DNA of 64,000 nucleotides from an uncultured Nitrospiraceae bacterium (GCA_963705105.1 CAVPIW010000005.1:320001-384000), one strand, 5' to 3'; positions 10,009 through 16,841 are shown, counted from the stretch's first letter. Numbers and translations: made by a program. The notes: a model not told the origin generated them from the letters alone.

Positions 10009-11384
10009 TCACCGCGCGTCGATGGTGGACGTTTGTTTTCTGCCTCTTCGTCCTGGCTTCCTGCGCGCAAATTGACTCAAGCAGGGAGTGGGACAGGACA
10101 AAGAGGGGCGCCCTGGAGCTGACGGGCTATGAGCCCCGTTGGGCCAGGTCGGACGAGGCAAAGGCATCGGTCCGGACGGAGATCGACCGCCTCCTCTCCG
10201 ACGGCCTCACCATGGATGAGGCGGTGCATATCGCCCTCATGAACAATGCGAAAATGCAGGCATCCTTCGAAGAGATCGGCATCGCCGCAGCCGAATACGT
10301 CCGCGCCGGTCTGCCGGCGAATCCGGCAATCGGCGCCGCTTTCCGGTTCCCTTCCGGACAGGGAGATACCGAAATCGATGCGGACATGATGATCGATCTG
10401 GCGGCCCTCTGGCAGATACCGCGGCGAAGTGATGCTGCACGGACGAAAAATGATGTCACACGCGCCGTCATCCTCGATGAGATGGCACGGGTAGTCACGG
10501 AGGTAACAGTCGCCTTCATGGACTGCCTCGCCCTGTCGATGATCAGAGAGGAGGGCCTGCGTTTGAAGAGGGAACTCGACGAGTGGGCGTCGCACCTCCG
10601 GTATCGCAGAGGCTTCGGCTTTACGAGCGATGTCGAGATGCATACGGCCGGGACCGTGATCGCTGAACAGGAGATCGAGCTTATCCGCATCGGGAGCGCC
10701 GAAAAATCGGCGAGGGCGAGACTGACCAGGCTGCTCGGCCTGAAGCCGGGAAGAGCCCGGTATGACATGAAAGGATCCATAGACTATAGCGTCGCTCCGA
10801 TGCCGGATTACGGAGAGGCGCTGACGGCAGCGCTGACAAGGAGACCGGACGTTCAGGCAGCGGAACTCAGGGTGACCGAGGCCGGCCACCTGCTTTCCCT
10901 GGAACGGACGCGAGTCCTGCCGCACCTGGAGGCGGGGATCTCATTTTCCCATGATCATGAGGGGAAGGACGCCTATGGCCCGGCATTCGCCCTCCAACTG
11001 CCCGTCTTTGACCGGAATCAGGCGCAGATATCAGCGGCTGAGCACCGGCTCCGCCAGGCCGAACGGGAACTGGAGGAAAAGAAGGCCATCGTGGGCGAAG
11101 AAGTTGCTGAAGCCATAGAACTTCTTATGGCATCACGCCAGGAGGTGACGATCCTGAAAGACCGCCTCCTGCCGCTGAGAAGGGAAGCCGTTATATTCAC
11201 CGAGAAGTACGTCAATGCGATGGAACTCACCATGCTCAACCTCTTTGAGGCGCGGCTGCGGCTGTTCGAAGCGCAGAGACGGTTCATCGAGGCCATGAGG
11301 GATAGCAGGAAGCGGGAGATCGAGTTCGCCCGGGCAACGGGGAGGCTGACCCCGACTGTGCCGCAGGGACACAAAGGACAATGA
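10005..11384 (+). CDS. TolC-family outer membrane lipoprotein (copper-resistance associated)
   Basis: Lipobox LASC, LPVFDRNQA-type OEP motif, ATGA overlap with the oxidase gene. Confidence 0.85.
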   Translation: MITARRWWTFVFCLFVLASCAQIDSSREWDRTKRGALELTGYEPRWARSDEAKASVRTEIDRLLSDGLTMDEAVHIALMNNAKMQASFEEIGIAAAEYVRAGLPANPAIGAAFRFPSGQGDTEIDADMMIDLAALWQIPRRSDAARTKNDVTRAVILDEMARVVTEVTVAFMDCLALSMIREEGLRLKRELDEWASHLRYRRGFGFTSDVEMHTAGTVIAEQEIELIRIGSAEKSARARLTRLLGLKPGRARYDMKGSIDYSVAPMPDYGEALTAALTRRPDVQAAELRVTEAGHLLSLERTRVLPHLEAGISFSHDHEGKDAYGPAFALQLPVFDRNQAQISAAEHRLRQAERELEEKKAIVGEEVAEAIELLMASRQEVTILKDRLLPLRREAVIFTEKYVNAMELTMLNLFEARLRLFEAQRRFIEAMRDSRKREIEFARATGRLTPTVPQGHKGQ

Positions 11385-11403
11385 GAATAAGGAGGGAACG
11401 GAC

Positions 11404-11910
11404 ATGAAAGCGTTGATCATCAGTGCCGACGATTTTGAGGACACGGAACTCCTCGTCCCCTACTACCGGCTCAGGGAGGAGGGGATCGACGTCGACGTGG
11501 CGTCGATGAAGAAGACGAAGATCAGGGGGAAGCACGGATACGAGGTGACGCCGACCAAAAGGCTCGCCGACGTGAACCCCGACGAGTACGACCTCCTCAT
11601 TCTGCCCGGCGGCAAGGCCCCCGAAGCGGTCCGGAAGGAGGAAAAAGCCCTCGACATAGCCCGCAATTTCTTCCAAAAGAACAAGCCTGTCTCTGCCATC
11701 TGCCACGGGCCGCAGACGCTCATTTCGGCCGGGCTCATGAAGGGGAGGCACGCCACCTGTTACAAGTCGGTGGCGAAGGAGATGAAGGCGGCGGGGGCGC
11801 GCTATGAGGATCAGGAGGTGATCGTGGACGGCAATCTCGTCACATCACGGCATCCCGCCGATCTGCCGGCCTTCATGCGTGAAACGATGAGACTCCTGAA
11901 GAAAGGTTAA
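11404..11910 (+). CDS. PfpI/DJ-1 family (type 1 glutamine amidotransferase-like) protein
   Basis: FEDTE, LPGG, AICHGP, DGNLVTSR motifs. Confidence 0.92.
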   Translation: MKALIISADDFEDTELLVPYYRLREEGIDVDVASMKKTKIRGKHGYEVTPTKRLADVNPDEYDLLILPGGKAPEAVRKEEKALDIARNFFQKNKPVSAICHGPQTLISAGLMKGRHATCYKSVAKEMKAAGARYEDQEVIVDGNLVTSRHPADLPAFMRETMRLLKKG

Positions 11911-12105
11911 CCTTATCGTTGCAATACACTTCCGGGAAAGGCGGGGCGTATGCGCCGAAAACCTTGCTGCGGCGACACCTGTATCGAAGAAGACGAGGCA
12001 TACGCCGATGTCAGGAGAATTGGACATCTTTTCCGACACTGACACACACTGACACTGACACTGTTTTCAGAGTGCTTCGCCACGCCTTTCTATACAACTA
12101 CAAGG
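11911..12105 (+). mobile_element. Family A MITE copy with alternative core containing (GACACT)n
   Basis: Left arm identical to the 288 copy; TTAA duplicated at 11907-11910 (includes the PfpI stop codon) and 12106-12109. Confidence 0.85.
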
Positions 12106-12174
12106 TTAACAGGCCGATTCGCTGGGGCAAAGGAAGAGGCGATTGATCTCCCGTGCCCCCGTCTCTCCGGTCGC

Positions 12175-12603
12175 TCAGTATCTTCTCTCGTACTTCTCGC
12201 TTTCGCAGACTTCCCTGACCTGGTCCTTCACCATCCTGCCGTCTTCCCAGACCTTCTCGTGCACTTTTCTGCATTTGGTCTGGCCGTCAGGATAATAGGC
12301 ACCTCCTTCAGGTTCGGCATAGTAGCGCCCCCGGCCGTCGTCGGTCCTGTATTCCACGGGTCTCCCCGTAGTGGCGACCTGGCGGGACCCCCTCATCGAG
12401 ATATCGGTTATAGTCGCCCCGGCGACGGCGCCGAGGCCTGCGCCGATGACTCCGCCTCTCCACGGGTTCTTATGGTCGATAAGCGCTCCGGCGATTCCTC
12501 CGACGAGACCGCCTGCAGCAGCTCCCTCATAGTGGTACTGTGTGCATCCGGTCATCGATGTCGACAGAGCAATCGCCAGTGCGACGGCAATGATTCCCTT
12601 CAT
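12175..12603 (-). CDS. Glycine-zipper lipoprotein
   Basis: Lipobox-like MTGC; GAAAGGLVGGIAGA and GAGLGAVAGA zippers. Confidence 0.8.
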   Translation of the reverse strand: MKGIIAVALAIALSTSMTGCTQYHYEGAAAGGLVGGIAGALIDHKNPWRGGVIGAGLGAVAGATITDISMRGSRQVATTGRPVEYRTDDGRGRYYAEPEGGAYYPDGQTKCRKVHEKVWEDGRMVKDQVREVCESEKYERRY

Positions 12604-13022: not shown

Positions 13023-13673
13023 ATGGATGCGATTCAGGCAATAAGCGAACGAAGGTCGATAAACTTCTTTGAACCCAACAGAGAGATTTCGGACGACAAG
13101 CTGAACAACCTCCTGGGCATAGCGAACCTGTCGCCGTCTTCCTTCAATCTGCAGCCCTGGAAGGTGCTCGTGATCCGCGACCACGGCAAGAAGAAATTCC
13201 TCCGCCAGTGCGCCTTCAACCAGCCGAAGGCGGAGGAGGCATCGGCGATGCTCATCATCATAGCCGACCCCGCGGCTGTCGAGGAGAACATCGACAAGGT
13301 GCTTAAGAGCTGGGAAAAGCTCGGGTACATGAACCCCGAGATGAGGGACCCCTACATCAAGATGATCAAAGGCCTCTACGGCGAGCAGAACACCGAAAAG
13401 AGGAGGCTCTTCGCCGTGAAGAACGCCGCGCTGTTTGCCATGAACGTGATGATTACGGCCAAGGACCTGGGACTCGAAACGCATCCCATGGACGGTATTG
13501 ACGAAGAGTGCATCAAGAAAGAGTTCAGCATCCCTGAGGACAAATTGATCCCTATGCTCATCGCCGTCGGTTACCTGAAAGAAGGGGTGTCCCTGCTGCC
13601 GAGGGCATGGAGGAGATCAATCGGAGAATTCGTGAGATTCGAATCGTACTACGTCGATCTCGAGATGTACTGA
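13023..13673 (+). CDS. Nitroreductase family protein
   Basis: RRSINFF, SPSSFNLQPW, THPMDG motifs. Confidence 0.92.
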   Translation: MDAIQAISERRSINFFEPNREISDDKLNNLLGIANLSPSSFNLQPWKVLVIRDHGKKKFLRQCAFNQPKAEEASAMLIIIADPAAVEENIDKVLKSWEKLGYMNPEMRDPYIKMIKGLYGEQNTEKRRLFAVKNAALFAMNVMITAKDLGLETHPMDGIDEECIKKEFSIPEDKLIPMLIAVGYLKEGVSLLPRAWRRSIGEFVRFESYYVDLEMY

Positions 13674-13842
13674 TCATGCCTCAGGGACGGCGCCGCTCTG
13701 AAAAACCCGTCCCCGGAAGGAGAAAGGGCCGGTGAATCTCTGCAGAAGGGAATTCCTGATCACAGCCTGTGCCGGCATGACTGCCGCCGTGCTGTGCTCG
13801 TATGATCATCTACCTGCTGAAACAGGAAAGGAGAAAAAAACA

Positions 13843-14421
13843 ATGGCCTATACTGCAAAAGATTATGCAAAACTGATCGGGATGGAGGGTTTCAGCGAAA
13901 CGCTCCTCAAGAACCATTTCACCCTGTACCAGGGCTATGTGACGAACACGAACAAAGTCCTCGACACGCTTGACCAGATGCTCAAAGACGGCAAGACAGC
14001 CACACCGGAGTTTGCCGAACTGAAGAGGAGACTGGGATGGGAGTTCAACGGCATGCGGCTCCATGAGTACTATTTCGAGAACCTCGGGGGCAAGGCCGCC
14101 ATCAACAAGGACGGCAAGCTTGCGAAGAAACTGGCCGGGGACTTCGGAAGCTATGAAGCATGGGAAAAAGATTTCAAGGGGACCGGCACCATGCGGGGCA
14201 TCGGATGGGTCGTCCTGTATCAGGACAGCGCAAACGGAAAACTTATCAATTTCTGGATCAATGAGCACGACGTGTCCCATCCCGCCGGCTGCAACCCCAT
14301 CCTCATCATGGACGTCTTCGAGCATGCCTTCATGATCGATTACGGGCTCAAGAGGGCCGATTACATCGAGGCCTTCTTCAAGAACATCGACTGGGCAGCG
14401 GCGGAAGCGCGGCTTAAGTAG
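13843..14421 (+). CDS. Fe/Mn superoxide dismutase family protein (possible upstream Tat start at 13732)
   Basis: HFTLYQGYV, LHEYYF, MDVFEHAF metal ligands. Confidence 0.9.
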   Translation: MAYTAKDYAKLIGMEGFSETLLKNHFTLYQGYVTNTNKVLDTLDQMLKDGKTATPEFAELKRRLGWEFNGMRLHEYYFENLGGKAAINKDGKLAKKLAGDFGSYEAWEKDFKGTGTMRGIGWVVLYQDSANGKLINFWINEHDVSHPAGCNPILIMDVFEHAFMIDYGLKRADYIEAFFKNIDWAAAEARLK

Positions 14422-14442
14422 AGACCCGCTCCGCTTTCCGTT

Positions 14443-14488
14443 ACAAGACCGGCCGGGACAGACCCTCTGTCCCGGCCGGTCTTGTTTC
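14443..14488 (+). terminator. Intrinsic terminator after the SOD gene
   Basis: Perfect 20-bp stem 14443-14462/14466-14485 ending in a T tract. Confidence 0.75.
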
Positions 14489-14565
14489 TATCCCCGCCCC
14501 TCAAAGTCCTTCTGGATGCAGAAACTATGCACCACCCTCATTTTCAAAGTTCTCCAAGAGTCATT

Positions 14566-14613
14566 TTGGACAAGAGTGACATTCGGGTATAATTAAGGCA
14601 GAAAGGAGGTGAT
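14566..14613 (+). promoter_or_regulatory. Sigma70-like promoter and strong RBS for the small peptide gene
   Basis: TTGGAC-N16-TATAAT (14588-14593); AAGGAGGTGAT at 14603-14613. Confidence 0.6.
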
Positions 14614-14618
14614 GCCGG

Positions 14619-14741
14619 ATGAAGAAGGTGATGAATGAGAAAGCCCTTGCCGCGGAGGCAGCATTCTGGGGAGTCATGAAGAAACCGCTCACCGGGCAAT
14701 CGGGCAAGATCTGTCACAAATGAAAGGGCTGAAAGAGCTGA
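14619..14741 (+). CDS. Putative RiPP precursor peptide, candidate selenopeptide MKKVMNEKALAAEAAFWGVMKKPLTGQSGKICHK(U)KG(U)KS
   Basis: Strong RBS; 34 codons to the first TGA (14721); further in-frame TGAs at 14730 and 14739 in Cxx register; next TAG at 14766; upstream of radical SAM/SPASM gene. Confidence 0.7.
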
Positions 14742-14742
14742 A

Positions 14743-14761
14743 CATTGCCAGGATGGCAATG
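14743..14761 (+). promoter_or_regulatory. Candidate bacterial SECIS hairpin
   Basis: Perfect 8-bp stem CATTGCCA/TGGCAATG with GGA loop, starting 10 nt after the second TGA. Confidence 0.5.
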
Positions 14762-14845
14762 CACGTAGTACAGGCAGGGCGGGCGGGCGGCATTCTTTTC
14801 GATATCGTCACCCTGCCTGTTCCAATTTCTTCCTGTGTCAAGGTT

Positions 14846-14981
14846 TGACGGATTCGCAAAAGGTCCTTTCCAAACACTTGTCCGTCATTCCCGTGCAGAC
14901 GGGAATCCAATGTATTCAGTCAGTTTCTTCTGGTCTGGATACCCGCCTTCGCGAGTATGACAACTTTTTGCGAGGTCGTAA
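14846..14981. mobile_element. MITE-like element family B copy 2
   Basis: TGACGGATTCGCAAAA...TTTTGCGAGGTCGTAA, AGGTT on both flanks; inner palindrome 14884-14909 identical to 105-130. Confidence 0.7.
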
Positions 14982-15012
14982 AGGTTTGACTGAATGAAAA
15001 TGGATCGTCAGC

Positions 15013-16056
15013 ATGCACTATGAATTTTTTATCCAGCTTCACCTCACCGAGAGGTGCAATCTCCGGTGCACCCATTGTTATCAGGGAGGCAACGGGGTTG
15101 ACGAGATGTCCCTTGACGAGATCAGGGACCTCATCGGTGAAGTCGAGGGGATGATCGGGACATGGTCGTCATCGTACTGCCTGGAATTTTCGCCCAGCTT
15201 CACGATTACCGGAGGCGAGCCCTTCCTGAGAAAGGATTTCTTCACGGTCCTTGATGACCTTTCGGCGCGGGGAATCGACACCTTCGTCCTCACGAACGGT
15301 ACCCTTGTCGGGAAGGACAATGCCCGCGACCTTTCACGCCTCGGGATCAAAGGTGTCCAGGTGAGCGTCGATGGACCCCGGGAGATCCATGACCGGATCA
15401 GGGGAAAAGGGAGCTTCACTTCCGCCCTCAGGGGGGTGCGCCATCTCCTTGACGCAGGTATCACAGTCACTCTGAATATGACCCTCTCCTCTCTGAACTC
15501 CGGTTCTTTCATGGAGATGGTCGATCTGTCGAAATCTCTCGGCGTGCAGAGGCTTGGGTTTTCGCGCCTCGTTCCCTGCGGCAGGGGAGAGGTCATGGCA
15601 GGGTCACTCCTCAGCAAGATGGAACTTCGGGAGCTCTGCGAGCGTGCCGAAGCGCTGCACATCGACGGTCTCGAGATCGTCACCGGTGACCCTGTGGCGT
15701 CGCAGATTTCATCTCTCCACGCAGGATGCAGCGATATCGTGCCGGAGAGCGGACCATCCGGTGGGTGCGCCGCAGCCTTTTCAGGATTGACGATCCTGCC
15801 CGACGGCACCATCACCCCCTGCCGGAGACTGCCCGTCCCCATCGGGAATGTGCGCCGTGACAGCCTGAGGGAGGTCTGGGCGACGTCGGAGGTGCTTCAG
15901 CGCCTCAGGGACCAGGGGTCGTACAGGGGAAAGTGCGGGACCTGTTCACGCTGGAATGTCTGCAGAGGTTGCAGGGCCATCGCCTACGCATACGCTCACC
16001 TGCAGGGTCAGGCCGACTACCTGGCAGAAGACCCCCAGTGTTTCATTGAATCATGA
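15013..16056 (+). CDS. Radical SAM protein with SPASM domain (putative peptide maturase)
   Basis: CNLRCTHC, TGGEP, SVDG; SPASM cysteines GGC...GTITPC...CGTCSRWNVCRGC...DPQC. Confidence 0.92.
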   Translation: MHYEFFIQLHLTERCNLRCTHCYQGGNGVDEMSLDEIRDLIGEVEGMIGTWSSSYCLEFSPSFTITGGEPFLRKDFFTVLDDLSARGIDTFVLTNGTLVGKDNARDLSRLGIKGVQVSVDGPREIHDRIRGKGSFTSALRGVRHLLDAGITVTLNMTLSSLNSGSFMEMVDLSKSLGVQRLGFSRLVPCGRGEVMAGSLLSKMELRELCERAEALHIDGLEIVTGDPVASQISSLHAGCSDIVPESGPSGGCAAAFSGLTILPDGTITPCRRLPVPIGNVRRDSLREVWATSEVLQRLRDQGSYRGKCGTCSRWNVCRGCRAIAYAYAHLQGQADYLAEDPQCFIES

Positions 16057-16088
16057 GGCTGGTTCCAACTGTCGAGTACGGATTCATA

Positions 16089-16301
16089 CCCAATAGTTGC
16101 ATGAAAAGGCGGGGCGAAGCGCCTCAAAGCCTTTCTGAAGGCGACGATGAGCCTCGTCAGGTTTGTCTTTCAGGATTCCACTCTCTGTGTGATCGACCAT
16201 TGGCTTGAAAGGTTGTCTTCAGTGAAGGTTAAGGTGTCGCCGCAGCAAGGTTTTCGGCGCATACACCCCGCCTTTCCCGGGAGTGTATTGCAACGATAAG
16301 G
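16089..16301 (-). mobile_element. Family A MITE copy (reverse orientation)
   Basis: Reverse complement closely matches 288-500 and 44411-44624. Confidence 0.85.
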
Positions 16302-16394
16302 ATAACAAATGACTCAATGACTTTCACGTTGGCATTTCGCTCCACCCTTATAATGCAGCAGGCGGGTTTTATTAAATAGAAGGGAGGCTTGGAC

Positions 16395-16841
16395 ATGCCG
16401 CATGCCGGATTGATGGACGAAAGAGAGCTCGGGCCGGAGGCCGGGCCGTTACTGAGGGCAAAGCTCCACATACGGGGCGGGAAGAGACGGTTGCATCAGG
16501 GGAAAATAGCGGCCGGCATCGTCACCCTTTATGACGCCCTGTCCGCAGCCATGGAATGGTATATCAACAGGCCCGGGTGCAGGGAGACCCTGAGAATTCA
16601 GGACGGCGATAACCTCGATGACGAGCGGACGGCCTATGCTGTTCTTAACCGCTCGGGGATTCTCGACGGCTCCTTCGATTATGACGCCTTCGACATCCTC
16701 CTCGAACGGGCCCTTCATGAAGACCTGGAAGGGTTCGACTATAGGCGGATGCTCAAGGGCCTCGAGTCGATCATGACGCAGCTCGGCGTCATGCCCTTCG
16801 ACGAGGCAGCCCTGCCGCCCGAAGACCCATCGACATACTGA
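16395..16841 (+). CDS. Hypothetical protein
   Basis: GGAGG RBS, intact ORF with genome-like codon usage. Confidence 0.7.
   Translation: MPHAGLMDERELGPEAGPLLRAKLHIRGGKRRLHQGKIAAGIVTLYDALSAAMEWYINRPGCRETLRIQDGDNLDDERTAYAVLNRSGILDGSFDYDAFDILLERALHEDLEGFDYRRMLKGLESIMTQLGVMPFDEAALPPEDPSTY

Follow-up and report, generated by a model that had tools for sequence, protein, structure and literature searches.

A predicted two-gene selenopeptide system with a dedicated radical SAM/SPASM enzyme in an uncultured Nitrospiraceae bacterium

The subject of this report is a pair of neighbouring genes on the + strand of a 64,000-nucleotide (nt) stretch of DNA, hereafter the window, from an uncultured Nitrospiraceae bacterium (GCA_963705105.1 CAVPIW010000005.1:320001-384000). 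The first is a short gene containing in-frame TGA codons, and the second encodes a radical S-adenosylmethionine (SAM) enzyme with a SPASM domain. Our main finding, to which we assign a probability of roughly 0.7, is that the two constitute a selenopeptide system of the type of peptides that are made on ribosomes and modified after translation (RiPPs), in which a precursor with two selenocysteines (Sec) is served by a dedicated enzyme. A preliminary description of the locus had pointed to such a peptide, and its coordinates for the ribosome-binding site, the open reading frame (ORF), the TGT codon, the three TGAs, the hairpin and the radical SAM ORF were all confirmed; its count of three Sec was not, as set out below.

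The precursor gene, its two UGA codons and the hairpin behind them

The precursor gene (14619..14741, + strand) starts with an ATG at 14619, ends with a TGA at 14739-14741 and would encode 40 amino acids, made up of a 31-residue basic leader and the core C32-H-K-U35-K-G-U38-K-S40. The core cysteine codon is a TGT at 14712, and in-frame TGAs follow at 14721, 14730 and 14739; we predict that the first two (14721..14723 and 14730..14732, + strand) encode Sec35 and Sec38. A strong ribosome-binding site (14603..14613, + strand; AAGGAGGTGAT at 14603) precedes the start, and a GGAGGTG/GGGGGTG-type site stands ahead of the start codon in the 40 homologs whose upstream regions are shown. The leader has the properties of a coding sequence: over 66 leaders the codon-position entropy is 0.86/0.73/1.35, the third position being the most variable, there are no in-frame stops in any of the 66, and residues E13 and W17 are invariant across the precursor family. 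That the precursor is basic, with no hydrophobic signal, and that its enzyme is short (347 residues) had already been pointed out, and a basic helical leader is indeed what we see.

The case for recoding is carried by the homologs. A homologous small ORF stands upstream of the enzyme at 26 of the best 30 enzyme loci (the window's included) found in 301 genomes of the phylum, as expected in the preliminary description for radical SAM homologs with a conserved peptide beside them. Both TGAs are kept in 26 of these 26 ORFs and a variable stop appears only at the third position, which is TGA in 13, TAA in 11 and TAG in two. A profile built from these ORFs detects the peptide in 57 of these 301 genomes, with two TGAs in every full-length match, and in 57 pattern-free profile matches neither TAA nor TAG occurs at the first and second positions. 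When GTDB genomes were scanned with a pattern that allowed TGA, TGC or TGT at both sites, at least 119 loci emerged, from which a leader test (E-x3-W) retains 105 family members, 73 among the first 80 loci and 32 among the remaining 39. Seven of the first 80 were left out (six unrelated, plus L153, apparently a frameshifted member), as were seven of the other 39 (five unrelated, plus L174 and L175, in which the leader is cut off). Among these 105 listed loci, whose counts lack independence because the locus sets overlap and the genomes are kin, TGA/TGA is found in 104 and TGC/TGA in one (L193), which means that the second TGA is kept in 105 of 105, that Cys never aligns with position 38 and that it aligns with position 35 once. 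The third position is TAA in 49, TGA in 47, TAG in seven and TCA in two. The codons around the TGAs vary synonymously, Ser occurring as both AGY and TCN. The matches listed come mostly from Nitrospirota, and also from delta-proteobacteria, Syntrophorhabdales including Syntrophorhabdus aromaticivorans UI, Syntrophus and one Chloroflexota bin. Some delta-proteobacterial contigs have two precursor copies (L077/L156 and L147/L193), one copy having Cys for the first Sec: L193 is the second copy on the contig of L147.

Protein databases present the family in truncated form. All 120 protein homologs listed end two residues past Cys32 and carry no precomputed Pfam domain, and the database gene callers give a 34-residue form of the peptide; the family has stayed hidden because these callers stop at residue 34. 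A Cys form was not found in a profile search of 1.84 billion representatives, where the sole full-length match (P0244) has Trp at the TGA places. A reading of TGA as Trp was rejected, the Trp being taken as a gene-caller artefact; the source genome ends genes at TGA. An all-Cys pattern search of metagenomes returned three matches, all unrelated to the family. Cys is almost never found in place of Sec, and selenium thus seems to be required.

Since two TGAs are kept, the sequence is under coding constraint and the database forms are cut at Cys+2, comparison of these sequences indicates that the gene codes for 40 residues with two Sec, and the UGAs at 14721 and 14730 are almost certainly read as Sec. 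The third TGA is best regarded as the stop because TAA or TAG stands there in 56 of the 105 listed loci, because only 9 nt separate it from the hairpin loop and because what follows it shows no protein-level conservation. Of the three Sec originally proposed, two therefore stand; the tail read through beyond the third TGA falls away, in line with the suspicion, voiced at the same time, that this TGA is the true stop. The variable third stop and the 9-nt spacing likewise led to the rejection of three Sec or a 49-residue product. An origin of the TGA repeats by local tandem duplication, which the preliminary description had raised against its own proposal with the TGAAAGRGC 9-mer, is refuted by the synonymous variation, including that of Ser between AGY and TCN.

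A bacterial Sec insertion sequence (SECIS)-type hairpin (14743..14761, + strand) lies directly behind the stop codon, with a perfect stem of 8 base pairs (bp), a GGA loop and a free energy of -9.1 kcal/mol; the family consensus is a 6-bp stem with a GGUC loop. Its loop is 27 nt downstream of the first UGA, 18 nt of the second and 9 nt of the third. The consensus for bacterial SECIS given in the available text of PMC13188914 has a small loop that opens with G and lies 16-37 nt downstream of the UGA, a model that the first and second UGA fit and the third fails. Taken alone, the hairpin of the window is not above shuffled sequence (z 0.31 to -1.42), and its significance derives from its conservation across the family, not from its own stability. 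A stem of at least 6 bp with a G-led loop follows the second TGA at 16-19 nt in 65 of the 73 family members of the first 80 pattern loci; for random TGAs of the source genome the figure is 119 of 8000. This range was set after the spacing distribution had been seen (modal spacing 16 nt). An earlier range of 17-20 nt, which misses that mode, gave 21 of 73 against 49 of 6000. An alignment of the 73 loci minus four with a longer spacer or broken hairpin, minus L097 and plus the window (68 distinct sequences) pairs in 99.8% of cells, with four of six pairs changing on both sides; slid controls drop to 16-59% pairing, and kinship inflates the shuffle control. The hairpin that had been called SECIS-like and potentially covarying thus has both a conserved spacing and two-sided changes. 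Rfam gave no match at gathering score. At four loci (L031, L112, L122 and L141) the spacer from stop to SECIS is 6-7 nt longer, and a GAGC before the stop can pair with a GCTC behind it. The source genome (99% complete) is equipped for Sec, since selA, selB, selD and a tRNA-Sec gene (selC), the four genes named in the preliminary description, are all present; its selD has its own in-frame TGA and a SECIS built alike, with a 6-bp stem and a GUC loop at 17 nt.

The radical SAM/SPASM enzyme and its pairing with the peptide

The enzyme gene (15013..16056, + strand) encodes 347 residues with Pfam Radical_SAM and SPASM matches, in agreement with its first description as a same-strand radical SAM enzyme with SPASM cysteines. 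The CxxxCxxC motif is formed by residues 15, 19 and 22 and is followed by seven invariant SPASM cysteines (252, 270, 308, 311, 317, 320 and 343; spacing 18/38/3/6/3/23); all ten are invariant in 121 of 121 enzyme sequences. Against NCBIfam the enzyme scores below every cut-off—AhbD (TIGR04545) 178 of 500 bits, ACGX (TIGR04340) 169 of 400, SbtM (TIGR04082) 129 of 350, PapB 68 of 340, SkfB 68 of 300, with NirJ2 also among the top scores and the StsB maturase model below its cut-off—and Atlas gave only generic radical SAM clusters for the enzyme, an ACGX cluster among the nearest, and no usable match for the peptide. An AlphaFold model (mean confidence, pLDDT, 89) shows a partial TIM barrel; the model begins directly with the barrel, which indicates that there is no N-terminal RiPP recognition element (RRE). 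The closest solved structures are SkfB, SuiB, PqqE, anSME, CteB and ChlB (16-23% identity), SkfB being the best match both by sequence (E 2.7e-17) and by fold. By analogy, auxiliary cluster 1 is predicted to be held by three Cys and to have an open site. In a quick tree built on 24 rows the enzyme clade has a support of 98.

Peptide and enzyme go together across the phylum. With the enzyme clade set by a score gap (E below 1e-110; 58 of 301 genomes), 59 genomes have at least one of the two genes and 56 of them have both, two having the enzyme only (G024 and G131) and one the peptide only (G182, in which the peptide is close to a contig end). In G131 the enzyme match (contig C3, 9828-10814; L021 and L207) has an in-frame TAA and no upstream peptide, and is probably a decaying copy. 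The two genes adjoin in 53 of the 56 genomes with both, lying apart in G138, G235 and G288, and the enzyme is downstream of the peptide at 59 of the 73 listed pattern loci; of the other 14, where the peptide is an orphan, nine were tested, and all nine have the enzyme elsewhere (55-61% identity). The gene selA is present in 51 of the 57 peptide genomes, and 93 selA-positive genomes have neither gene, so that the pair is not a general Sec marker. Co-occurrence is also independent of SbtM, which is found in only 14 of the 57. ORF clustering within 2.5 kb at the 73 loci found no recurring protease or exporter and the radical SAM gene as the only constant neighbour, which suggests that the product is probably intracellular and not a secreted antibiotic. 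The commonest variable neighbours are YceI (14 loci), a PEMT/ICMT-like protein (eight) and a pyridine nucleotide-disulphide oxidoreductase (five), and stress and redox genes recur among such neighbours. Two orphan peptide genes (L102 and L123) adjoin a gene that, from its translation, we take to be selD-like. A search for related loci with the enzyme as sole query returned no match.

A model of the complex supports binding of the leader by the enzyme. With the enzyme and peptide residues 1-34 as input, the model scored 0.89, against 0.02 for the best of three controls; the score mark is reached by 116 of 157 solved and two of 215 mismatched pairs, although these counts apply to the present case only approximately. 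The runs agree in at least 79% of contacts, with a partner pLDDT of at least 75. Peptide residues E13 and W17 are modelled in contact with enzyme residues W51, R286 and W289, all invariant, and Cys32 is placed at enzyme residues 251-253, with C252, C270 and C320 in the interface.

Relation to known systems, proposed chemistry and alternatives

The system resembles SbtA/SbtM, the thio(seleno)oxazole or 'selenobiotic' system (precursor TIGR04081, maturase TIGR04082), in having a small multi-Sec precursor beside a radical SAM/SPASM enzyme, in occurring in anaerobic Sec users and in having a bacterial SECIS after a UGA. The differences are as follows. No NCBIfam family matches the peptide, and TIGR04081 finds matches in the source genome only on contigs C12 and C17; the enzyme covers only positions 199-503 of the 516 of TIGR04082, with its 129 bits against a cut-off of 350, and with neither cut-off reached the preliminary view of a family distinct from SbtA/SbtM gains support. 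The leader is basic and helical where that of SbtA is hydrophobic, the family core is C-x-K-U-K-G/S-U-K in place of SGUG repeats, the enzyme lacks the N-terminal part of about 200 residues of SbtM, and it has seven SPASM Cys, whereas the SbtM and the AhbD-like protein of the source genome have eight. One hairpin serves two UGAs, whereas the source genome's SbtA genes have one about 21 nt after each; since one of these genes also has a hairpin behind its stop, the 3' position is not unique, and the difference lies in the use of one hairpin for two UGAs. The two SbtA/SbtM loci concerned, used as references for SECIS geometry within the genome, are on C12 near 186300 and on C17 near 58000 (L043 and L044). 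In the C17 precursor there are three UGAs, and a GGA-loop hairpin follows each of them at 21-22 nt; the C12 precursor contains two internal UGAs and closes with TGA-TAG, a SECIS-like hairpin lying 17-20 nt further on, so that it may carry a C-terminal Sec.

Maturases of ranthipeptides and sactipeptides (CteB, PapB, Tte1186 and SkfB) are likewise associated with Cys-rich precursors and have a seven-Cys SPASM domain, and the Cys spacing of CteB (18/38/3/6/4/19) is close to that of the enzyme here. According to the available text of PMC10177961, three Cys hold the first auxiliary cluster of CteB and leave a site open, and Sec is accepted in vitro by PapB and Tte1186, both of which produce selenoethers from Sec substrates whose Se binds at auxiliary cluster 1. 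Unlike these enzymes, the one studied here stays under all their NCBIfam cut-offs and has no RRE region, and its peptide has natural Sec (as predicted) and chalcogens with a period of three together with Lys; any cross-links on it are conjectural. The highest scores, those of AhbD and the ACGX radical SAM enzymes, go with a similar length and the lack of an RRE, but they are far under the cut-offs of 500 and 400, the peptide has no ACGX repeats, and the source genome has a separate AhbD-like gene (33-35% identity).

The next relatives in the phylum (36-42% identity; L195-L201) are radical SAM/SPASM enzymes beside TIGR04222 membrane proteins. All seven loci examined are at or near a protein whose C-terminal tail is rich in Cys and Gly and made of C-x-x-C/CGG units, and three of four scanned pass the TIGR04222 cut-off. 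Here the presumed substrate differs, being a membrane-protein tail without Sec, and six of the seven enzymes have Cys where the clade of the window has an invariant Thr260. This neighbourhood is possibly a protein-tail modification system, which fits Cys-modifying surroundings and proves nothing. We know of no chemistry for the TIGR04222-linked enzymes.

These comparisons, made on sequences, suggest a second, unrelated precursor type of radical SAM-linked selenopeptide, similar to SbtA/SbtM and to ranthipeptides, a member of neither and apparently undescribed. Table 1 of PMC13188914 (2026) lists among 119 prokaryotic selenoprotein families a single one that we could recognise as a radical SAM-linked selenopeptide, the 'selenobacteriocin' TIGR04081 (SGUG), and we saw in it no match to a 40-residue C-x-x-U-x-x-U peptide. 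No description of the family was found in the literature covered, including the available parts of PMC13326102 (BSepDB) and PMC13692751, a coverage that takes in few subscription journals. The family is widespread in Nitrospirota and delta-proteobacterial anaerobes and has a cultured carrier in S. aromaticivorans UI (L151). It offers a two-gene, synthesisable system with which to test radical C-Se chemistry, leader recognition without an RRE and how one bacterial SECIS decodes two nearby UGAs.

We propose the following mechanism. SelB, acting on the one hairpin behind the stop codon, would decode two UGAs nine bases apart, and translation would yield a 40-residue cytoplasmic precursor with a C-x-x-U-x-x-U core, its mRNA probably being kept in excess over that of the enzyme by a second hairpin. 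The RRE-less enzyme would hold the leader helix (E13 and W17) against its own surface, the open iron of the three-Cys auxiliary cluster would bind a thiolate or selenolate of the core, and oxidative modification of the core would follow. We consider leader binding by the enzyme, and its modification of the core, to be probable. The likeliest products would be thioether or selenoether cross-links from S or Se to carbon of neighbouring Lys, Gly or Ser, at -2 Da each, a chemistry to which we give somewhat less than even odds. We put forward more tentatively still a natural selenoether-macrocycle RiPP, with Se-carbon cross-links on an almost obligately selenium-containing core, one hairpin decoding both Sec, and an intracellular selenium or redox role in sulfur-cycling anaerobes; in the literature that we found, selenoethers occur only on synthetic substrates. 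As to the biological role, intracellular redox or metal/selenium handling is little better than a guess.

Several points weigh against this interpretation, which is built on sequence comparison and modelling. Six peptide genomes have no selA match; four of them (G111, G127, G212 and G218) show another Sec component, none was found in G151 (86% complete), and in G260 (63% complete) the search covered selA and selD. The single Cys variant, L193, is possibly a base error, and the other Cys searches gave no Cys form of the family; kinship of the genomes deprives the conservation counts of independence. An Asp as in the C-x3-D type of PapB is missing from the core, the enzyme scores best in NCBIfam on a heme b synthase (AhbD, 178 bits against 500), and the quick tree supports no sister group for the enzyme clade. 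The complex model lacked peptide residues 35-40 and may have been guided by solved radical SAM-peptide complexes (SuiB, CteB and ChlB; 16-23% identity).

Other interpretations keep the precursor and the enzyme and change what becomes of the core. An SbtM-like chemistry would convert each Cys and Sec, by four-electron oxidation, into a 5-thio- or 5-seleno-oxazole (-4 Da each) and give a peptide that binds a metal such as copper. This is the only radical SAM chemistry described on a natural Sec peptide in the available text of PMC11002830; the enzyme scores on TIGR04082 over its radical SAM/SPASM part, and chalcogens at i, i+3 and i+6 would suit chelation. We nevertheless consider it unlikely, given the distance of that score from the cut-off, an identity of only 26% to the SbtM of the source genome, the missing N-terminal extension, the seven instead of eight SPASM Cys and a core with no SGUG motif. 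It is also conceivable that the selenopeptide is a partner of the enzyme or a selenium carrier, the triad holding a metal or Fe-S cluster or passing electrons, or the enzyme stripping Se from Sec by an anSME-like oxidation, with the peptide as store or donor. CxxCxxC is the spacing of ferredoxins. The lack of a conserved protease or transporter within 2.5 kb, the two orphan peptide genes beside a selD-like gene, the near absence of Cys for Sec (one of 105 listed loci) and the presence of anSME among the fold matches would all fit. Such a role is made still less probable by a leader-plus-core layout, a precursor-first operon with an intervening hairpin and a modelled Cys32 at the auxiliary cluster, all typical of substrate peptides, and by selD adjacency at just two of 73 loci.

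Two further alternatives deny the peptide its part as substrate or its Sec altogether. The peptide gene precedes that of the enzyme, a terminator-like hairpin separates the two, and AhbD and NirJ2 are among the top scores, all of which would suit a selenium-sensing upstream ORF (uORF) that controls a radical SAM enzyme with another substrate, for example in heme or cofactor synthesis. A mere uORF would hardly be retained with its enzyme in genomes where the two are far apart (nine of nine tested; G138, G235 and G288), nor would its leader residues be under protein-level constraint; in addition, the complex model favours binding, and the separate AhbD-like gene of the source genome lies beside an ORF that, from its translation, we take to be uroporphyrinogen-decarboxylase-like. 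We regard a uORF as very improbable. Scarcely credible is a gene that ends at the first TGA (34 residues, ...C-H-K), as given by the gene callers, with the later TGAs and the hairpin serving as spare stops or as an RNA signal kept by conservation: an ordinary stop would be expected to vary as the third position does (TAA 49, TGA 47 and TAG 7 among the matches listed), while positions one and two never do so in the pattern-free matches, the codons behind the TGAs vary synonymously, one paralog has Cys at position 35, and all carrier lineages use Sec.

Flanking elements and other observations

A long second hairpin (14770..14820, + strand; -26.3 kcal/mol) lies between the peptide and enzyme genes, and a long stem is present at this site in most homolog folds shown; it is probably a terminator or an mRNA stabiliser. 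Behind it, a palindromic repeat resembling repetitive extragenic palindromes or miniature inverted-repeat transposable elements (14880..14960, + strand), with at least 24 copies in the genome by pattern, sits inserted between the two genes and is outside the system. Upstream, a possible promoter (14567..14593, + strand) consists of TGGACA, a 15-nt spacer and TATAAT at 14588 and is a candidate by its motifs only. The TATAAT of the preliminary description is indeed there, but a consensus scan of 14400-16400 gave no site, so that its promoter is reduced to a -10 look-alike. Short contigs from two metatranscriptome assemblies overlap the peptide gene (14633-14791 with no differences and 14610-14773 with nine); as the matches are contigs, they show neither transcription nor its level.

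Genes for a nitroreductase and an Fe/Mn superoxide dismutase lie directly upstream (window 13023-14484), with a long perfect inverted repeat after them at about 14445-14484. Elsewhere in the source genome, contig C4 has an array of 23 tRNA genes at 10181-12340, and contig C3, of 9 kb and 67% GC against 57% for the genome, has five tRNAs and is possibly mobile or mis-binned.

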